A program made the position numbers and the translations under genes. This document shows positions 1-55,957 of a DNA stretch of 64,000 nucleotides, in pieces (positions within the stretch are counted from its first letter, which is position 1; each line of letters opens with the position of its first letter). The DNA lies in assembly GCA_965203495.1 (NCBI GenBank), contig CBDBDB010000016.1:72719-136718 (forward strand), written 5' to 3'. Origin of the DNA: Candidatus Multivorans sp. (lineage in GTDB: Bacteria > Acidobacteriota > Thermoanaerobaculia > Multivoradales > Multivoraceae). The notes below the pieces were generated by a model, which was not told where the DNA came from, did no database searches, and saw only the letters and a list, made by a program, of their open reading frames with translations.

Positions 1-242
1 CGCGACGCGATGGAAGCTGACGACGATCACGGACCGTGCCCCCAGTTCCTCGGTCGCCTGGACCTCGTTGCCGGCCAGGGTAACCGCTCGCGGGGACTCG
101 CCGGACGCGCCGGCGCCAGCGGGGCTCAACGCCAGGCACGGAGCCAGCGCGGCGAGAAGCCGCCAACGCATCCTCCTGGCAGCCCGTGGCGGGAGTGCGC
201 ATCGCGGCGAGACGCGCCCAGGGAACATATCGATCCGGTACT

Positions 243-1118
243 TTACCGAGGAGCAACGACGCCGGAGGGGATGCATGGCCGACGGCGTCCGGGTGACGCG
301 GCCCCACGGCTGCGAACGCTGCCAGGGCCCCTTCGGAGGCGCATGATCCGGTAACGCCTGGTCATCGCGAAGGCTTCGGGATCCAGCAACCGGTCCAGTC
401 GCTCCAGGCGGCGGGTCACCGGCCCCGCGAGACGCCAGGCGGCGGCCGACAGACGGGGGAAACGCGAAGTCGAGGCGTCGCGCAGCAGGTTCAGCGTGCC
501 GAAGCCGAAGCGATGCACGATCGACTGTCCGAGACGGAGCGTCGGCAGCACCGAAGGCGTGATGTCCTGGTCCACCTCGAGCACGAGTCCGGCCGCTTCG
601 GCCCGGGCCAGGAACTCGTGCAGCGGGTGACCGCTTCTCGACCTTCCCTGATCGGTACCCACGGTGAAGTAGTCGCAGAGCAGCACGCTGCCTTCCGGCG
701 CCAAGGCGCGGCCGACCGCCTCGAAGAACTCATCGAGCCAGACGTACTGCACCGACTCGCACAGGAACAGGAGGTCGTACCGACGATCCGGCTCGAACTC
801 CTGGAACCGGCCCAGGTGAAAGCGTCGCCCCGGCAAACGCTCGGCGAAGAGCTTGCCGTGATACGGGTCGGGCGACAGGCCCTCGACGTCGTAACCCAGG
901 GCGATCAGTCGCTCGGCGATCGCGCCGGCGCCGCAGCCGACGTCGAGGACGGACGACACGCCAAGCGGCAGTTGTCCAAGGAGTCGCGCCACCAGGCGTT
1001 CCTGGGCACGGCGCAGGCCGGCCACGTCAAAGGGATCGTCGTCGTTCCAGATCCCGAAGTTCAGATGTTCGAGGCCGACGATCCGGTGGAGGAACTGGAG
1101 CGCGAAGCTCGTCTTCAC
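243..1118 (-). CDS. class I SAM-dependent methyltransferase
   Basis: Translation contains the SAM-binding motif VLDVGCGAG with methyltransferase-like flanking sequence. Start chosen as GTG at 1118 (VKTSFALQ...), because the ATG-extended ORF (to 1367) would abut the divergent amine oxidase start. Start is uncertain. Confidence 0.65.
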   Translation of the reverse strand: MKTSFALQFLHRIVGLEHLNFGIWNDDDPFDVAGLRRAQERLVARLLGQLPLGVSSVLDVGCGAGAIAERLIALGYDVEGLSPDPYHGKLFAERLPGRRFHLGRFQEFEPDRRYDLLFLCESVQYVWLDEFFEAVGRALAPEGSVLLCDYFTVGTDQGRSRSGHPLHEFLARAEAAGLVLEVDQDITPSVLPTLRLGQSIVHRFGFGTLNLLRDASTSRFPRLSAAAWRLAGPVTRRLERLDRLLDPEAFAMTRRYRIMRLRRGPGSVRSRGAASPGRRRPCIPSGVVAPR

Positions 1119-1369: not shown

Positions 1370-3358
1370 ATGCGCAAGCCCACTCTCCGTCCGACTCTCT
1401 GTCTGCTTGCGGCGGCAGCCATCCCCGCCGCCGCGGCGGACCATCCGCTCGACCAGCTCAGCTACCAGGAAGTCTGGCGCACCCTCGAGATCCTCCGCGA
1501 CGCCGGACGACTCGACGGCGAGACGACTTTCTCTCAACTCGCGCTGAGCGAACCGGCCAAGGATGTCGTCCGCGCCTGGCGAGCGGGCGACGAGATGCCG
1601 AGAGCCGCCTACGCCCTCCTTCGCCAGGGCGAGGACTCGTTCGAGGCGACCGTCGACCTGAACGCAGGGAAGGTCTCTTCCTGGACGCCGCTAACCGGCG
1701 TCCAGCCGAACTGGAGCCTGGGAGAGTTCGGGGCGGTCGTGGAGAAGGCGCTCAAGCATCCAGAATTCGTCGCGGGTCTCGAGAAGCGGGGCATCGCCGA
1801 CACGAGCTTCCTGGACTGCTCGACGATCCCGCCCGGCTACTTCGGAACCGAGGAGGAGAAGGGGCGGCGGCTCGGACATGTCCGCTGCTCCGAGGCGCGC
1901 GGCGCGAGGAACGCCTGGGCGCGGCAGATCGAGGGCCTGACCGCGGTGGTCGACCTGACGGCCGGCGAGGTGCTCAAGGTCGTCGACGACGGCGTGGCGC
2001 CGATACCCGACGTGGACGCCGACTTCGACCGGACCACGCTCGCCCATCCGCGCGAGGTCGCCGGCCCCTTCAGGATCGATCAGCCCGAGGGCGTCGGCTT
2101 CGACCTGAACGGCTACCAGGTGAGCTGGCAGAACTGGAGCTTCCACCTGCGGCCGGACCAGCGCACCGGACTGGTGGTCTCCCTCGTCGACTACCGCGAG
2201 AGCCCCGACGCGAGTCCGCGCTCGGTCATGTACCAGGGCCACCTCTCCGAGATCTACGTGCCCTACATGGATCCGGCCTTCGCCTGGTACGCCCGCAACT
2301 TCATCGACGCCGGCGAGTTCCCGGCAGGCGGTCTGGCCAAGCCGCTGCTGCGCGGCCGCGACTGCCCGGACCGCGCCGTCTACATCGACTCGATTCACAC
2401 GAACGCCCAGGGCCGGCCGCGCACGGCGCCCCGGACCACGTGCCTCTACGAACGGGAGACCGGAGACCCGTCCTGGCGTCACTACGAAGAAGAGCAGCCG
2501 GACAGCCGCAGGAGCCGCGATCTCGTCGTGCGCACCGCGGCCGTGGTCGGCAACTACGACTACCTGCTGGACTGGATCTTCCGCCAGGACGGCTCGATCG
2601 AGGTTCGCGCAGGCGCCACGGGCCTGCTCGAGGTCAAGGCAACGAGCGCCGTCTCGGCCATCCAGCCGGCGGCCGGCGCGGCGAACGCCGCCGCGGACGC
2701 GGTCCAGGCCGGAACGTCCGCCGACGCCTACGGCCGCTTCCTCGACCGCAACGTCATCGGCGTGAACCACGACCACTACTTCAGCTATCGACTCGACCTC
2801 GACATAGACGGCGCGGACAACCGGTTCGTCGCCGACCGCTTGGTCACGCGGGAGCTGCCGGCCGACCATCCCCGCCGCAGCCTCTGGGTTCAGGAACCCC
2901 ACGTCCCGCGGACCGAGCGGGACGCCCGGCTCGACATCGATCTCGCGAAGCCCGCGCTGTGGCGGATTCTGAGCGCCAGCCGGCGAAACGCGGTCGGCTA
3001 CCCCACGAGCTACCAGTTGATGCCCGGCCGCAACGCCGCCCACCTGTTCACGGCCGACGACTACTCGCTCCGACGCGCCGGTTTCATCGACCACCATCTC
3101 TGGGTGACGCCGTACGATCCGGAGGAACGTTTCGCCGCCGGCGACCACCCCACCCTGAGCGAGCCGGGAATGGGCCTGCCGGCCTGGACCGAAGCGAACC
3201 GGTCGATCAGCGACCAGGACCTCGTGCTCTGGCACACGGTCGGCATGCACCACCTGCCCCGCGCCGAAGACTGGCCCGTCATGCCGGTCATGTGGCACGG
3301 CTTCGAGCTGCGGCCATTCGACTTCTTCGACCGCAACCCGGCGCTCGATCTCCCTTGA
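1370..3358 (+). CDS. copper-containing primary-amine oxidase (TPQ cofactor), secreted
   Basis: 662 aa with N-terminal signal peptide (LCLLAAAAIPAAAA). Contains the topaquinone consensus VVGNYDY and His-rich copper-ligand motifs (HDHYF, HTVGMHHLP). SD-like AAGGGGGG precedes the ATG. Confidence 0.9.
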   Translation: MRKPTLRPTLCLLAAAAIPAAAADHPLDQLSYQEVWRTLEILRDAGRLDGETTFSQLALSEPAKDVVRAWRAGDEMPRAAYALLRQGEDSFEATVDLNAGKVSSWTPLTGVQPNWSLGEFGAVVEKALKHPEFVAGLEKRGIADTSFLDCSTIPPGYFGTEEEKGRRLGHVRCSEARGARNAWARQIEGLTAVVDLTAGEVLKVVDDGVAPIPDVDADFDRTTLAHPREVAGPFRIDQPEGVGFDLNGYQVSWQNWSFHLRPDQRTGLVVSLVDYRESPDASPRSVMYQGHLSEIYVPYMDPAFAWYARNFIDAGEFPAGGLAKPLLRGRDCPDRAVYIDSIHTNAQGRPRTAPRTTCLYERETGDPSWRHYEEEQPDSRRSRDLVVRTAAVVGNYDYLLDWIFRQDGSIEVRAGATGLLEVKATSAVSAIQPAAGAANAAADAVQAGTSADAYGRFLDRNVIGVNHDHYFSYRLDLDIDGADNRFVADRLVTRELPADHPRRSLWVQEPHVPRTERDARLDIDLAKPALWRILSASRRNAVGYPTSYQLMPGRNAAHLFTADDYSLRRAGFIDHHLWVTPYDPEERFAAGDHPTLSEPGMGLPAWTEANRSISDQDLVLWHTVGMHHLPRAEDWPVMPVMWHGFELRPFDFFDRNPALDLP

Positions 3359-3516
3359 CAGCCCGTGGTGGAAGTGCGCGGGGCGCCGAGAGCGGTCAGG
3401 CGCTCGTCCGGCAACGCGCTACGAGGGAGCATGTCGGGCTGTATTCGACCGAGGAGCAGCGATGCCGCGCGGGATGGTTGGCCGCTCGAATGCAGCGCGA
3501 CGCTCGCCACGGGTTG
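3359..3516. repeat. MITE-like nonautonomous element, copy A (about 158 bp). Termini CAGCCCGTGG...CCACGGGTTG match the TIRs of the IS at 31373-32849
   Basis: Direct comparison with 36624-36781 gives about 78-80% identity over about 158 bp. 9/10 terminal inverted repeat. Lies immediately after the amine oxidase stop codon. Confidence 0.6.
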
Positions 3517-3842
3517 TCAGATTCGGACGCGACGAGACGAGACAAATCTGTCTCGCGAGGAAGTCGGCCACACATTCCTGTGCGAAAAGAATGAGACGGC
3601 CGCATCTCCGAGTCGGTCCCTGATCTCGTCCAGGGCCTCCTGCGAGGCGCTCTCGTTCGCCTCCAAGTCCCGCTGAATCGGGGGCTTGCGGGTCGCCGTC
3701 GCGGGCCGCTGTCCAGACCGGCGGCCGGACGGGCGTCAGCCCGCGCGGTTGGCACGGTTCTAGAAACCATACGGGAAAGCCCGCCGCGGGCCCCGCCCAG
3801 TCGGCGCTCGACCGGGCCAACCGACTACGAGGAGGCACTCGA

Positions 3843-5180
3843 ATGAACTTGAGAACGCGAGGACGGACGTTTCGTCCGGGTCCGGTCTTGGGACTGGCGC
3901 CGCTCCTGGCCCTGCTGGCCGCTTCGCCGGCGGCAGCCCAAGAAGGCGTGGACGCCGGCGACACGGCATGGATGCTGACGGCCAGCGCCCTGGTGTTGCT
4001 GATGACACCCGGACTGGCGTTCTTCTACGGCGGACTGGTCCGCCGCAAGAACGTCCTGTCGATCCTCATGCAGTGCTTCCTGTGCATGGGCGTCATGACC
4101 GTGCTGTGGGTCCTGGTCGGCTTCAGCCTGGCCTTCGCGCCATCCGCCCTGGGCGGCCTGATCGGAGGCGGCGACTACTTCCTGCTCGCCGGCCTGGGCC
4201 ACGACGCGTGGGACGGCACGACCATTCCGGCGCCGCTGTTCATGATCTTCCAGGGCATGTTCGCGATCATCACTCCGGCGCTCATGATCGGGGCCTTCGC
4301 CGAGCGGATGAAGTTCAGCGCCATCTGCCTGTTCATGAGCGCCTGGCTGCTCGCGGTCTACGCTCCGGTCTGCCACTGGGTCTGGGGAGCAGGAGGAGGC
4401 TTCTTCGGATTCGGCGAAGGGGCGCTCGACTTCGCGGGCGGAACCGTCGTCCACATCAACGCGGGCGTGTCCGCCCTGGTCGCGGCGATCGTCCTCGGCC
4501 GGCGGCGCGACTACCCCGTTCACGCCTCTCCGCCCCACAACCTGCCGTTCGCCGTCCTCGGCACCGGGCTGCTGTGGTTCGGATGGTTCGGCTTCAACGC
4601 CGGCAGCGCCCTGGCGGCCAACGGCTCGGCAGCGAACGCTCTTGTCGTGACTCAGGTGGCGACCGCCGCCGCCGCCGCCGCCTGGGGTCTGATCGACTGG
4701 ATCCGCGACTCGAAACCGACGCTTCTGGGCGTCATCACCGGCGCCGTCGCCGGCCTTGTCGCCATCACGCCGGCCTGCGGCTCGGTCAGCGCCATCGGCG
4801 CGATCGCCATCGGCGCCGGCGCTTCCCTGTTCGCCTACCTCGCCGTCACCTGGCTCAAGGCCAGGCTCGGCTACGACGACTCGCTGGACGTCTTCGGCGT
4901 CCACGGCGTCGCCGGCATGTGGGGCGCGGTCGCCGCCGGACTCTGGGCCACGGACACCGTGCCCGGGAACGACGCGAACGGCCTGTTCCACGGCAACGCC
5001 GGCCAGCTCTGGACCCAGATCGAGGCGGTCCTCTTCACCATCGTCTGGGCCGCCGTCGTGTCCTTCATCCTGCTCAGGATCGTCGACCTGATCGTCGGTC
5101 TGCGCGTCAGCGACGACGAGGAGCGGATCGGCCTCGATCTCACCGACCACCGCGAGAACGCCTACACCCTGGTTGACTAG
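3843..5180 (+). CDS. amtB: ammonium transporter AmtB
   Basis: 445 aa, signal peptide plus about 11 TM helices. Strong similarity to the Amt/MEP family (e.g. FFYGGLVRRKN, FGFNAGSAL, VVHINAG). Followed by a P-II gene. Confidence 0.92.
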   Translation: MNLRTRGRTFRPGPVLGLAPLLALLAASPAAAQEGVDAGDTAWMLTASALVLLMTPGLAFFYGGLVRRKNVLSILMQCFLCMGVMTVLWVLVGFSLAFAPSALGGLIGGGDYFLLAGLGHDAWDGTTIPAPLFMIFQGMFAIITPALMIGAFAERMKFSAICLFMSAWLLAVYAPVCHWVWGAGGGFFGFGEGALDFAGGTVVHINAGVSALVAAIVLGRRRDYPVHASPPHNLPFAVLGTGLLWFGWFGFNAGSALAANGSAANALVVTQVATAAAAAAWGLIDWIRDSKPTLLGVITGAVAGLVAITPACGSVSAIGAIAIGAGASLFAYLAVTWLKARLGYDDSLDVFGVHGVAGMWGAVAAGLWATDTVPGNDANGLFHGNAGQLWTQIEAVLFTIVWAAVVSFILLRIVDLIVGLRVSDDEERIGLDLTDHRENAYTLVD

Positions 5181-30927: not shown

Positions 30928-31372
30928 CGACGGTCGTGCCGTCGGGCCTGGAAGGCGTCTGGCCCGAACAGACGGCAGCCTGCATGGACCGCTTCGCGGC
31001 GCCGGCCGGCCTACGGTGCGGAGTCTCTTCGCGGCAGAAAATCTCCCGGCGTGAGAAACGGACCCGGGATGGCGACCGGTTGGAGTGTCAGGTTCTGAGA
31101 CCAGGCGCTGGTAGCTTCCGCGACTCGCCTCGACACTGTCGAGCGCACCAAGGCCACCTCAACCTGCGCCTTGGTGAGTCCACCTTGGGGCTGCCGTGCC
31201 TCACCCACTCAAACCGAGGACTTCCCCATGCATCTTGACCTTCAACGACTCTTGACCGGTGTCTCCACCGACTCGTTCGACGACGGAATCCGCATCGACA
31301 CCTGCGTGCCGCGTGTCGCCGGGGTTCACCCCCCGGCCTTCGTTGAGCGTGGCTAGCGACAATCCCCCTTAT

Positions 31373-32849
31373 CAGCCCGTGGCAAAAGTCGGGCTGTCCG
31401 CCGTTTCGGCTATGCGATAGGATGGGTTCATGGCTATGGGCAAAAGGCGTCGTGAGAATCAGGAGCTTCTCTGGGTGTCTGGATCGGCTCTGCCGCGGAG
31501 TTCCGGCCATCCGTTCTACGAGCGTTTGGACCGTGTGCTGGAGTCGAGCGGTTTCGACGAGTTCGTCGAGTCGGAGTGTGCGGGGTTCTACGCGGAGCGG
31601 ATGGGTCGTCCGAGTCTTCCTCCAGGTACGTACTTCCGGTTGTTGATGGTGGGCTTCTTCGAGGGTCTGGATTCGGAGCGGGAGATCGCCTGGCGTGCTC
31701 AGGACTCGTTGAGCATTCGTGGGTTCCTGGGCTTGAGTGTGACGGAGGGTTCGCCGGATCATTCGACGATTTCTCGCACTCGTCGTCTGATCGATCTGGA
31801 GACTCACGGCAAGGTGTTCAGCTGGGTTCTTGAGCGCTTGGCGGAGTCGGGTCTGGTATCGGGGAAGACAGTGGGCGTGGACGCGACGACGCTGGAGGCG
31901 AACGCTGCGCTGCGCAGCATCGTTCGTCGGGATACGGGTTCTGGCTACGAGGAGTTCGTGCGTGGCTTGGCAGAGGCTTCGGGCTTGGCGACGCTGACTC
32001 GTGCGGAGTTGGCTCGTTTCGACCGCAAGCGGAAGAAGAAGCTGTCGAACGAGGAGTGGGAGAATCCTCACGATCCGGATGCCGAGGTCACGAAGATGAA
32101 GGATGGCCGCACGCACCTCGCGTACAAGGCGGAGCAGGCGGTGGACCTGGAGAGCGGGGCCATTCTGGGTGTGACGCTGCATGGCGGCGCCAAGGGAGAC
32201 ACGGAGTCGGTCCACGAGACGTTGGAGGAGACGTTCGAGCAGGTGGAGTCGGCAGTCGGCGATTCGTCGGTGATCGAGGAAGTGATTGCGGACAAGGGCT
32301 ACCACAGCAACGACGTTCTCGCCTCCATCGACGAGTTGGAGCTTCGCAGCTACATCGCGGAGCCGGACCGTGGTCGTCGTCGTTGGACAGGCAAGAAGGA
32401 CTTGCAAGCCATCGTGTACGCGAACCGTCGGCGGGTCCGCGGCAATCGGGGCAAGCGGCTGCAGCGCCGGCGCGGCGAGCGCGTCGAACGTCCCTTCGCT
32501 CACCAGTTCGAGACCGGCGGCATGCGGCGCTTGCATCTGCGCGGCCGCGACAACGCGCTCAAGCGCCTTTACATTCATTCCTGCGGCTTCAATCTCGGTC
32601 TCCTGATGAGGAGCCTCGCGGGAGTCGGCACGCCACGATCGCTGCAGGGCCGTGTCACGGCAACTCTGGGCGCCCAGACTGGCTTGCTTGCAGCGTTCAC
32701 AGCCCGATTCGACGGGCTGATGCAGTCGATCTGCGCCTCTTGGCGCGCACATCGCCTCGGCTTCCAACTTTGCGTCGCGTAGCGCTGCCCAGACTCAGCC
32801 TCGAAGCAGCAGTGGCACTCCGGGCCGAATCCACTTTTGCCACGGGCTG
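31373..32849. mobile_element. intact insertion sequence, IS5/IS1182-type (IS4/IS5 superfamily), 1477 bp
   Basis: Perfect 17-bp TIRs CAGCCCGTGGCAAAAGT (31373-31389 and 32833-32849 reverse-complemented). Flanked by a 4-bp direct repeat TTAT (31369-31372 and 32850-32853). A single transposase ORF lies inside. Confidence 0.85.
31430..32782 (+). CDS. IS5/IS1182-family DDE transposase
   Basis: 450 aa. Similarity to IS4/IS5/IS1182 transposases (N-terminal DNA-binding region, ...VGVDATTLEANAA..., ...IADKGYHS... DDE region). Lies between the TIRs. Confidence 0.88.
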   Translation: MAMGKRRRENQELLWVSGSALPRSSGHPFYERLDRVLESSGFDEFVESECAGFYAERMGRPSLPPGTYFRLLMVGFFEGLDSEREIAWRAQDSLSIRGFLGLSVTEGSPDHSTISRTRRLIDLETHGKVFSWVLERLAESGLVSGKTVGVDATTLEANAALRSIVRRDTGSGYEEFVRGLAEASGLATLTRAELARFDRKRKKKLSNEEWENPHDPDAEVTKMKDGRTHLAYKAEQAVDLESGAILGVTLHGGAKGDTESVHETLEETFEQVESAVGDSSVIEEVIADKGYHSNDVLASIDELELRSYIAEPDRGRRRWTGKKDLQAIVYANRRRVRGNRGKRLQRRRGERVERPFAHQFETGGMRRLHLRGRDNALKRLYIHSCGFNLGLLMRSLAGVGTPRSLQGRVTATLGAQTGLLAAFTARFDGLMQSICASWRAHRLGFQLCVA

Positions 32850-32985
32850 TTATGACTAGTCAAACAACGCCCGTCAAGCACCGATAGGCAACCGTCCGCA
32901 AGCGCCCGCAAGCGGACACGTGATAGAGTGCTGTTGCGCTGTCAAGCACTGGAGCGCGGCGGCTGCCGGATAGGAGGCTGATCCG

Positions 32986-36623: not shown

Positions 36624-36781
36624 CAGCCCGTGGTGGACGAGCGCGTCGCGCCGAGAGCGGTCAGACGCCCGTCCGGCAAGGAGCGACGAGGGAGCCTGCC
36701 GGTCCAACCTCGATCGAGGAGCAACGGTGCCGGGCAGGGTGGTTGACCGCTCGAATGCAGCACGACGTTCACCAGGGGCCT
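36624..36781. repeat. MITE-like nonautonomous element, copy B (about 158 bp), with a more degraded right terminus
   Basis: Aligns base-for-base with 3359-3516 at about 78-80% identity. Begins CAGCCCGTGGTGGA... and overlaps the 5' UTR/start region of the antiporter gene. Confidence 0.6.
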
Positions 36782-36787
36782 CTAGGT

Positions 36788-37582
36788 CTAGGCGAGCGCA
36801 ACAGCCACGTCAGCCAGCCGAACGCCCAGGCGGGCCGTCCGAAGGCGGATCTTCACCAGCGGAACAAGGGCCGAAGGACGCATCAGGGCTCCTCGAACGA
36901 CCGGACCCAGCGGCATGCCCCCGTCGGGCGCCGGCACGCGCTCGAGCCACGACGGAAGTCTATCCGCCGCCGTGTCGCTGATCGCCCGCACCGCGGCGAA
37001 GGGAACGTCGGCCCGCTGAAGCACCCGGGCCGCCGCCCAGCTCTCCATGTCGACGGCGGTCCGGGGGAGGGCGCCGGCGCGCCGCCAAAGCGCCTCGCGC
37101 GACGACGCGGTGACCGCAAGACCAGGCGCCGTGACCAGAACGCCGCGGCGACAACCCCGCGCCGCGGCCGCCTCGATCAGGGTCTCGTCGCCGCTCATGG
37201 ACGGCTGGTCCGGCGCCATCACCGTCCGGCCGACGACCAGATCGCCCACCTCGAGGTCCGGCGACAGGGCGCCGGCGACGCCAAGCCAGACCACCCTGCC
37301 GCAGGCGCCGCGGGCAGCCAGGCGAACGCAGCGTTCGGCGGCCCGCCGCGCCGACCGCTCGCCGACCCCGCAAACCGCCACCTGGACGGACCGGTCTCCG
37401 ATGCGGCCTCGAACAGCCGCGGTGGCCGCGCCATCCTCGACGCGCGAGGCGTCCGCCACGCGGCGCAACAGGGTCGAAGCCTCCGACTTCATCGCGGCGA
37501 GGTAGACGGTCGGCCCTCCAGAGGCCGGCGGGGACGCCGGCGAAGCCAGTGCGGGACCCCGCGTGCCGCCCGTCGTCGTCAC
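36788..37582 (-). CDS. hpnG: hopanoid-associated phosphorylase (PNP/MTA-nucleosidase family), HpnG-like
   Basis: PNP_UDP_1-type motifs (TVYLAAMKSEA..., AVCGVGE, TAVDMESWAAARV). GTG start at 37582 overlaps the hpnA stop (GTGA). Alternative ATG at 37492. Confidence 0.7.
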   Translation of the reverse strand: MTTTGGTRGPALASPASPPASGGPTVYLAAMKSEASTLLRRVADASRVEDGAATAAVRGRIGDRSVQVAVCGVGERSARRAAERCVRLAARGACGRVVWLGVAGALSPDLEVGDLVVGRTVMAPDQPSMSGDETLIEAAAARGCRRGVLVTAPGLAVTASSREALWRRAGALPRTAVDMESWAAARVLQRADVPFAAVRAISDTAADRLPSWLERVPAPDGGMPLGPVVRGALMRPSALVPLVKIRLRTARLGVRLADVAVALA

Positions 37583-46064: not shown

Positions 46065-46143
46065 CGCGTCGCGGACCGGATGCCGGCGGGGACGCCGGCG
46101 CACCCAGTCCGGATGCCGGCGGGGGCGCCGGAGCACCCCGGGT

Positions 46144-55659: not shown

Positions 55660-55957
55660 CAGCCGTCGGGCCGCGCCGTCGCACGGGAGGCGGGACACAC
55701 TGGCTGCGCAGGCGTCCCCGCCGGCATCCGGCGCGAAACGCCGGGCTCCGGAATCCGTGTCGCGCCGGCAGCGTCGGCACACCTGTACCTTTCCGGGATG
55801 GGATTCGGTCATCGATCTCGTACCGTTCGCCGTAGTCGCCGGGGCTGCGGTAGCTGTGGGAAACCGGTCCGCCGGTATTCCAAGGACCGGCGGGAAACGG
55901 CTTGCCGTTTTCCCGGTGCGGCGGTGTCTGTTCGATGCAACCGAGGGCGTGGAGCCG

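Follow-up and report, generated by a model that had tools for sequence, protein, structure and literature searches.

Relic copies of a 158-bp repeat in a Candidatus Multivorans contig probably belong to a large type II MITE family with a strand-specific fold

The 64,000-nt stretch of DNA analysed here (the window; contig CBDBDB010000016.1, positions 72,719 to 136,718 of the forward strand, assembly GCA_965203495.1) comes from the acidobacteriote Candidatus Multivorans sp. and carries a 158-bp repeat, with two full-length copies, A (3359-3516) and B (36624-36781), and a third, damaged copy, C (180-313). We conclude, with a probability of about 0.88, that this unit belongs to a large family of type II MITEs (miniature transposable elements with inverted repeats) that make 4-bp YTAR duplications, have an insertion sequence (IS) of the IS5/IS1182 kind as partner and fold on the + strand into a long rod, and that the window copies are relics of that family. 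Type II MITEs are those in which similarity to an autonomous IS is confined to the terminal inverted repeats (TIRs) (PMC10969869). The element would be cut and pasted in trans by IS5/IS1182-like DDE transposases that recognise the shared termini only, and its fold would be maintained by selection on a single-stranded form.

A sequence-only reading of the window had described a MITE-like repeat of 158 bp in two copies. This repeat is real: A and B align without gaps over 158 columns (80.4% pairwise identity; 82% over 155 nt). The count was incomplete, as copy C, on the same strand, had been overlooked. Both A and B start with the 10-mer CAGCCCGTGG, which was counted five times in the window, against 0.3 expected: at A, at B, at the two ends of a resident IS and at position 180. 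The shared termini that had been proposed hold for the left ends and, within one mismatch in the terminal 10 bp, for the right end of A (terminus CCACGGGTTG), but B ends in CCAGGGGCCT, with three mismatches to the family terminus CCACGGGCTG, and not in CCACGGG(T/C)TG. We built a covariance model (R1) from 69 foreign copies plus A and B, and its search of the window gave exactly three matches, with scores of 133.6 bits for A (E 2.7e-23), 119.4 bits for B (E 1.2e-20) and 32.7 bits for C (matched over 190-281). The nearest foreign copies, from Thermoanaerobaculia/Ca. Multivorans, are 88% identical to A (L048, L044) and 84% identical to B, and each of the two is closer to copies from other genomes than to the other (80%). 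Copy A also carries the substitutions G57C and G62T at two otherwise near-invariant core positions. Judged by their sequences, A, B and C are old relics with decayed ends, cores and duplications, with no sign of present mobility.

The family was delimited with two pattern scans. A scan of one genome per species with the pattern CAGCCCGTGG-N55-85-CGAGGAGCANCG returned at least 117 loci, of which about 100 were genuine and the remainder were chance matches with odd spacing in unrelated taxa. A metagenome scan with different anchors (CAAGGCGCGACGA-N55-85-TCGAATGCAG) returned at least 120 loci. Each scan forces its own anchor columns to be invariant, yet the anchors of the other set, left free, remain conserved. 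Family counts below are among the matches listed by the two scans, at least about 220 loci in total. By record label, the hosts among the matches listed belong to the Acidobacteriota (Vicinamibacterales, Thermoanaerobaculia/Ca. Multivorans and Bryobacterales) and the Gemmatimonadota (Longimicrobiales and Ca. Palauibacter), with three 'Spirochaetia' metagenome-assembled genomes (MAGs), one Elusimicrobiota MAG and one 'delta proteobacterium' MAG in addition. The modal length is 158 bp, found exactly in 49 of 107 elements from the genome scan, in 76 of 87 bounded copies from the metagenome scan and in 125 of 176 delimited copies. Longer variants of 169/170, 185, 198, 200, 226, 245 and 275 bp keep the core and have hairpins added at fixed points. 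The family ends are CAGCCCGTGG...CCACGGGCTG, with a TIR of 10-17 bp (CAGCCCGTGG[T/C][G/A]AAA...); in the metagenome set CAGCCCGTGG is present in 57/87 copies, CCACGGGCTG in 63/87 and GAGGAGCAACG in 66/87. The TIR is conserved in a sample that was not selected for ends. In the family alignment, positions 2-13 are 98.7% paired with 158-169.

The unit had been thought too short to code for anything, and this agrees with the family data: there is no open reading frame (ORF) with a Pfam domain, and 1-nt indels and paired compensatory changes are incompatible with a conserved reading frame. A possible start in copy A (GAGGAG-N5-ATG) was considered and rejected, as the corresponding codon is GTG in B and ACG in C, and ATG is absent in most subfamilies. 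No Rfam family (release 15) matched the window at the gathering threshold, and when a well-preserved copy and copy A were scanned against Rfam at permissive thresholds, the matches, to microRNA and long non-coding RNA families, were at chance level only. Literature searches with the terminal 10-mer and for MITEs of Acidobacteria, Gemmatimonadetes and IS1182 found no description of a 158-bp family, the 10-mer matching unrelated primers only, and the family is apparently undescribed. In a 245-247-bp variant in Gemmatimonadota (L027, L031, L037, L041, L045, L104 and L117), roughly 75-90 bp are inserted, including a conserved + strand promoter-like motif, (C)ATGACA, 17 nt, TACAGT/TACAGC; if this motif is active, transcription from it would leave the element at its right end and enter the adjacent gene.

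Evidence for transposition comes from the element ends. We compared the flanks of 158 copies with well-defined ends and found identical flanking 4-mers in 75 of them, 54 palindromic (CTAG, TTAA) and 21 direct-only (TTAG eight times, CCAG, CTAA, TTTA and others), against five that were inverted-only. The flank logo reads Y-T-A-R on both sides and is mostly CTAG. IS5 makes 4-bp YTAR duplications (PMC5009759), and both the MITE family and its partner ISs behave in this way. Identity between copies averages 94% within a genome, reaching 99.4% at loci megabases apart (e.g. OZ253543 and OZ253576), and 81.5% between genomes. Head-to-tail arrays of two or three elements with spacers of 2-5 bp, 4-bp ones among them (L041 7150-7892; L002 5765-6201; L105 3524-3864), fit insertion of new copies into the duplicated target beside one already present. 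At L011, L021 and L042, as at copies A and C, the flanking 4-mers are inverted complements, and such flanks lengthen the element's hairpin by 4 pairs.

Comparison with related genomes revealed empty sites for two of the window copies. Orthologs of the amine oxidase upstream of copy A are 91%, 91% and 81% identical at the amino acid level in three genomes, including a Ca. Multivorans-like one, and the gene order in all three is that of the window (methyltransferase, amine oxidase, amtB, P-II, GlnE). Copy A is absent from all three, in each case as a single gap of exactly 162 columns (158+4; alignment columns 70-231) that opens immediately past the stop codon, and the empty sites read CCCCTGA|GTCCGG. 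Copy C is absent in L242, where 5 nt separate the methyltransferase stop from the next ATG, and in L243, where the two genes overlap. The empty sites for A and C are both CTGA, which includes the TGA stop. No empty site was found for copy B, as gene order in the relatives breaks at the element. Many copies with TIRs, 4-bp target-site duplications (TSDs), near-identical dispersed copies, empty sites and partner ISs together uphold the earlier identification of the unit as a MITE, which had anticipated that more copies of this kind would be found in the genome.

The resident IS had been reported with perfect 17-bp TIRs, and this is correct (Table 1). It is flanked by TTAT/TTAT (31369-31372, 32850-32853). 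The best NCBIfam match of its transposase is to the IS1182 family (NF033551), at 178 bits against a cut-off of 270; IS5 models come second, and all fall under their curated cut-offs. On sequence grounds we describe the IS as IS5/IS1182-like, without a firm family assignment. The 90% protein cluster of the transposase has members on at least 10 contigs, and with its perfect TIRs and perfect TSD the IS looks recent and apparently multi-copy. Homologs of this IS lie inside 3 of 237 MITE loci (8-kb loci, among the matches listed). One (L085, 3904-5368) has the TIR CAGCCCGTGGTGAAAGT and flanks GTAG/GTAG; another is at L090 (5030-6520). Two further copies, 1478-bp ISs encoding a 69%-identical homolog in L239 and L240, have TIRs CAGCCCGTGGTGAAAGTCG and flanks CTAC/CTAC and CTAG/CTAG. 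These homologous ISs of about 1.47-1.49 kb occur in the same kinds of genome as the MITE and have in common with it their outermost 15-17 bp, the length of the duplication and its target. When the consensus, copy A and copy B were compared with five ISs by blastn-short, similarity covered only the terminal 10-17 bp, with none internally. Similarity confined to the termini argues for a type II MITE and not for a deletion derivative. In a separate case (L238, 1-2939), an IS homolog without its left end is nested among transposase genes (IS110-type DEDD_Tnp_IS110, DUF4372) in an IS-rich hotspot of a 4.6-Mb contig.

Table 1. Coordinates of the MITE copies and the resident IS in the window
Feature	Position	Strand	Description
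MITE copy A	3359..3516	+	158 bp, full length; left end CAGCCCGTGGTGGAAGT, right end ...CGCCACGGGTTG
Copy A left flank TTGA	3355..3358	+	includes amine-oxidase stop TGA 3356-3358
Copy A right flank TCAG	3517..3520	+	4 extra bp completing the 162-bp insertion; not a direct repeat of the left flank now
Copy A central core (element positions 54-104)	3412..3462	+	in the family, three tandem G·A steps around an apical hairpin
MITE copy B	36624..36781	+	158 bp, full length, more decayed; right terminus CCAGGGGCCT, apical hairpin disrupted
Copy B CTAG flank	36782..36785	+	canonical target
MITE copy C	180..313	+	25-nt internal deletion; right end CCACGGCTG damaged (indel)
Resident IS, 1477 bp	31373..32849	+	perfect 17-bp TIRs CAGCCCGTGGCAAAAGT (31373-31389, 32833-32849)
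Transposase ORF, 450 aa	31430..32782	+	DUF772 and DDE_Tnp_1 domains

To characterise the fold of the + strand, RNAalifold was run on an alignment of 71 sequences (A3). It yielded one long hairpin of 50 pairs, and 33 of these show compensatory changes. Paired cells amount to 95.6%, compared with 84.4% after shuffling and 31-40% with the partners slid, and cells changed on both sides number 335, compared with 91 after shuffling. The conserved 'internal loops' CAAGGCGCGACGAGGGAGC (5' side) and GACCGAGGAGCAACGC (3' side) are three 5'-GA/5'-GA tandem mismatches (G62A63/G96A97, G65A66/G93A94 and G69A70/G89A90), whose six G·A/A·G pairs are each found in 142-154 of 154 distinct copies. The Watson-Crick pairs between the G·A steps covary (68·91: GC 57, CG 62, TA 12; 67·92: GC 68, CG 43), which validates the register of the tandem steps. 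In this model the whole element can fold into a continuous rod of about 75 pairs. The Elusimicrobiota-MAG subfamily has wholly different stem sequences and an identical central module of about 50 nt.

The constraint is specific to one strand. Cells with G·U outnumber those with A·C by 213:34 in the genome set and by 172:44 in the independent metagenome set, and pairs with more G·U than A·C outnumber the reverse by 31 to 8 (sign test p=0.0003) and by 26 to 7 (p=0.0013), respectively. The computed stability of + strand RNA exceeds that of the - strand in 69 of 71 copies (mean -98.2 versus -87.4 kcal/mol), and on the complement strand the tandem G·A steps become C·T mismatches. Single-sequence DNA folds of the window copies are weakly informative (z of -2.6 for A, -3.0 for B and +1.4 for C); the structure is clear from the family alignment, not from single window copies. 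The suspicion of a structural constraint, first raised by differences between A and B, is thus borne out at the level of the family, by the 33 covarying pairs and the replicated preference for G·U. The simplest candidate for the selected form, by analogy with the Correia and ERIC repeats, would be RNA from a transcribed element, its long duplex serving in processing or stability; single-stranded DNA (ssDNA) or a specific protein-binding module is a possible alternative.

A stronger proposal is that the conserved rod is a functional single-stranded module, a specific RNA or ssDNA ligand and not just a tolerated palindrome. The three tandem G·A steps, the covarying flanking helices, the insertions at fixed points and the retention of the central ~50 nt in the Elusimicrobiota-MAG subfamily all point in this direction. 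Possible roles of such a ligand are binding to a host protein or a transposase, control of the partner IS, or a processing or stability signal at gene ends on which the host could be selected. We consider this proposal rather unlikely, and it is separate from the identification of the unit as a MITE.

The strand specificity of the fold also bears on how the element moves. Movement as ssDNA by another enzyme (HUH/Y1, as in REPIN/RAYT or IS200/IS605-derived systems) would make the fold the recognition structure and the match to the IS termini a coincidence or a secondary feature; in its favour, G·T-compatible wobbles and tandem G·A steps are stable in DNA as well. All three window copies are on the + strand, and the GC skew of the window is negative throughout (-0.03 to -0.06). 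An association between element orientation and local GC skew was weak in the genome set (p about 0.01-0.04) and was not replicated in the metagenome set (Fisher p=1.0), and we regard it as unsupported. Clear TIRs, together with a defined target that is directly duplicated over 4 bp, are characteristic of DDE transposition and not of Y1/HUH enzymes, and DDE ISs with the same 15-17-bp termini and TSDs are present in the same genomes. No RAYT or TnpA gene was met beside the copies, though no search aimed at them was made. We judge ssDNA movement very unlikely.

The sequence-only reading had derived the element from the resident IS. If so, it would be a type I MITE, an internal-deletion derivative made recently and mobilised in this genome by that IS. 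The terminal 10 bp are identical to the TIR of the IS, the left end of A matches it at 14 of 17 positions, and the IS is intact, with a perfect TSD and apparently many copies. Beyond the termini, however, neither the resident IS nor its four relatives resemble the MITE, the same 158-bp unit is found in other phyla, and the window copies share 80% identity among themselves, less than with foreign copies. The family consensus TIR (..TGAAAG..) also fits the IS relatives better than the resident IS. The 17-bp TIR of the resident IS occurs exactly at both ends of the Elusimicrobiota-MAG subfamily and at the right end of many Vicinamibacterales copies, which places it within the range of the family. 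A recent origin from the resident IS is very unlikely, and the proposal that this IS mobilised the window copies finds no support, the copies being old and decayed and the IS apparently recent.

Curated structured-RNA families show similar traits: covariation, a non-canonical core that hardly varies, insertion of modules at fixed points, and strand specificity. A structured non-coding RNA gene or cis-regulatory host RNA that is repeated but not transposable is nevertheless highly improbable: TSDs, TIRs, empty sites, tandem arrays and near-identity within genomes already refute its immobility, and the copies occur in all four orientation contexts beside unrelated genes and match no Rfam family. 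A functional RNA borne by the MITE remains compatible with these data. Remains of a larger segmental duplication, or chance similarity favoured by the high GC content, are scarcely credible, given that the flanking genes are unrelated, that similarity ends at the element ends and that E-values are 1e-20 to 1e-23 against a model from other genomes.

Several points weigh against our preferred reading of the repeat as a type II MITE family with a selected fold. We infer mobilisation in trans from the shared termini and the TSDs. The window copies themselves have degraded right ends and no recognisable TSD (TTGA/TCAG at A, TCAG/CTAG at B and CTGG/CGAA at C), and their status as MITEs follows from family membership and the empty sites and not from their own duplications. 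At the filled sites of A and C the flanks are inverted, not direct (TTGA...TCAG and CTGG...CCAG), which a simple 4-bp duplication fails to explain; decay or a non-canonical event may be involved. For the fold, the cell counts exceed the true number of independent changes, as the copies share descent. Some of the apparent compensation could arise by templated repair inside quasi-palindromes; the strand asymmetry could not. A co-transcribed functional RNA would be expected to show an orientation bias, and orientation relative to neighbouring genes is unbiased (24/17/15/14 over the four contexts; stop-codon abutment 25 sense versus 17 antisense). Copies A and B also lack promoter-like and terminator-like sites, both of the sigma-70 and of the intrinsic-terminator type.

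The position of the copies relative to genes reflects the target of the family. Copy A had been placed against the stop codon of an amine oxidase gene and upstream of amtB, and this is so: it directly follows a Cu amine oxidase gene (1370-3358), with the start of amtB at 3843. In the window, which has a GC content of 69%, CTAG occurs 11 times against 181 expected from base composition, a depletion of about 16-fold. Among 144 copies with enough flank, the duplicated TAG or TAA is the stop codon of a long ORF with high third-position GC content (GC3) in 41, with 25 abutments on the left side of the element (sense) and 17 on the right side (antisense). The abutment of copy A to a stop codon is accounted for by the target preference of the family in CTAG-depleted DNA, and stop-codon abutment is a family habit, not a sign of regulatory design. 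Of the 11 CTAG sites of the window, four are no more than 20 bp from copy B or an end of the IS.

Copy A is in the sense orientation relative to its neighbours, and B and C are antisense. It had been suggested that the element may have rewired the regulation of adjacent genes; our results show no such rewiring, and for amtB none is indicated. A sigma-54-like site of the -24/-12 type, TTGGCACGGTTCT (3749-3761), is located about 90 bp upstream of amtB and downstream of the copy A insertion, is conserved in all four aligned genomes and is intact at filled and empty loci alike. By its sequence the site fits NtrC/sigma-54 control of amtB-glnB, unaffected by the MITE. In the Ca. Multivorans relative L241 (937-2922), a second amine oxidase paralog (661 aa) is located upstream of the ortholog; it is absent from the window, L242 and L243.

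Copy C lies between a minus-strand methyltransferase gene (243-1367) and the following gene on that strand, which starts at 172. Relatives have ...MRFRSAS* as the end of the methyltransferase; in the window its reading frame continues for about 29 further codons within copy C before its stop. The insertion demonstrably replaced the last codons of the gene with about 29 element-encoded ones, and the annotated C-terminus is element-derived. The gene after the methyltransferase has an AGGAGG-ATG directly beside the end of copy C. Copy B starts 15 nt upstream of the likely GTG start (about 36609) of a minus-strand KefB-type antiporter gene and ends 6 nt past the stop (36788-36790) of a minus-strand PNP_UDP_1 gene. 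It had been assigned to the 5' region of the antiporter, which holds for its position upstream of the start but not for the coding region, as it is not inside it. Copy B demonstrably replaced whatever stood immediately upstream of kefB. Gene order breaks exactly at this copy (36624-36790, compared with L244-L247): the window has kefB after PNP_UDP_1, and the relatives have an AAA_14/DUF4143 gene or a luciferase-like gene instead. From this comparison, a rearrangement junction may be located at copy B.

A second, unrelated short repeat was noted in the window, a GC-rich palindrome with a REP-like look (CCGGATGCCGGCGGGGACGCCGGCG), in four copies with 83-93% identity (37518-37547, 46076-46105 and 46109-46138, direct; 55698-55741, inverted), two of which are in tandem.

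Membership of the window copies in this family explains three oddities of the window: a repeat that sits on a stop codon, a methyltransferase ORF that is longer by about 29 codons, and, 15 nt upstream of kefB, a repeat where gene order breaks. The insertions are old, and A and C are absent from the nearest relatives. More broadly, the apparently undescribed family is very abundant in soil Acidobacteriota and Gemmatimonadota, phyla with almost no characterised mobile-element biology. It stands out for a clear autonomous partner, for a target preference that steers it onto TAG and TAA stops in CTAG-depleted, high-GC genomes, and for a strand-specific, constrained interior. Repeats of this kind fragment assemblies, mislead gene callers when ORFs run into them and can pass for regulatory RNAs, and a covariance model of the family would be directly useful for annotation. 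A functional fold would amount to a new motif of structured RNA or DNA; were it also a specific ligand, a DDE transposon would have spread a new class of structured nucleic acid from phylum to phylum.

The family resembles bacterial type II MITEs in its length of 158 bp, its TIRs and TSD, its many copies, its presence/absence polymorphism and an IS with matching termini and no internal similarity. It differs from them in an interior that is unusually conserved across classes and phyla and in a very sharp length mode. As in IS5 and the IS5/IS1182 superfamily, the partner encodes a transposase of the DDE_Tnp_1 type with DUF772 at its N-terminus and makes a 4-bp YTAR duplication (PMC5009759). Unlike in these groups, its 450-aa transposase falls under the cut-offs of the IS1182 model and of all IS5 models. 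To our knowledge, the sequence of the partner TIR is unrelated to that of the IS5 TIR.

Correia repeats of Neisseria and ERIC/IRU repeats of Enterobacteria are MITE-like imperfect palindromes of 100-170 bp that form long hairpins once transcribed (PMC10969869). RNase III cuts Correia RNAs, and transcript levels are altered by ERIC insertions at the 3' ends of genes (PMC10969869). The 158-bp family is likewise found largely at gene ends, but it has no sequence similarity to these repeats and occurs in other host phyla. The TSD of Correia and ERIC is TA, compared with the 4-bp YTAR of the 158-bp family. We know of no description for either of a core of three tandem G·A steps or of a replicated strand asymmetry. 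REP/REPIN-RAYT and IS200/IS605-derived palindromes are also repeated, extragenic and dependent on a single-stranded fold. They do not have the TIR-plus-TSD architecture and depend on Y1/HUH enzymes, whereas the 158-bp family has TIRs, direct 4-bp duplications and DDE-type partners.

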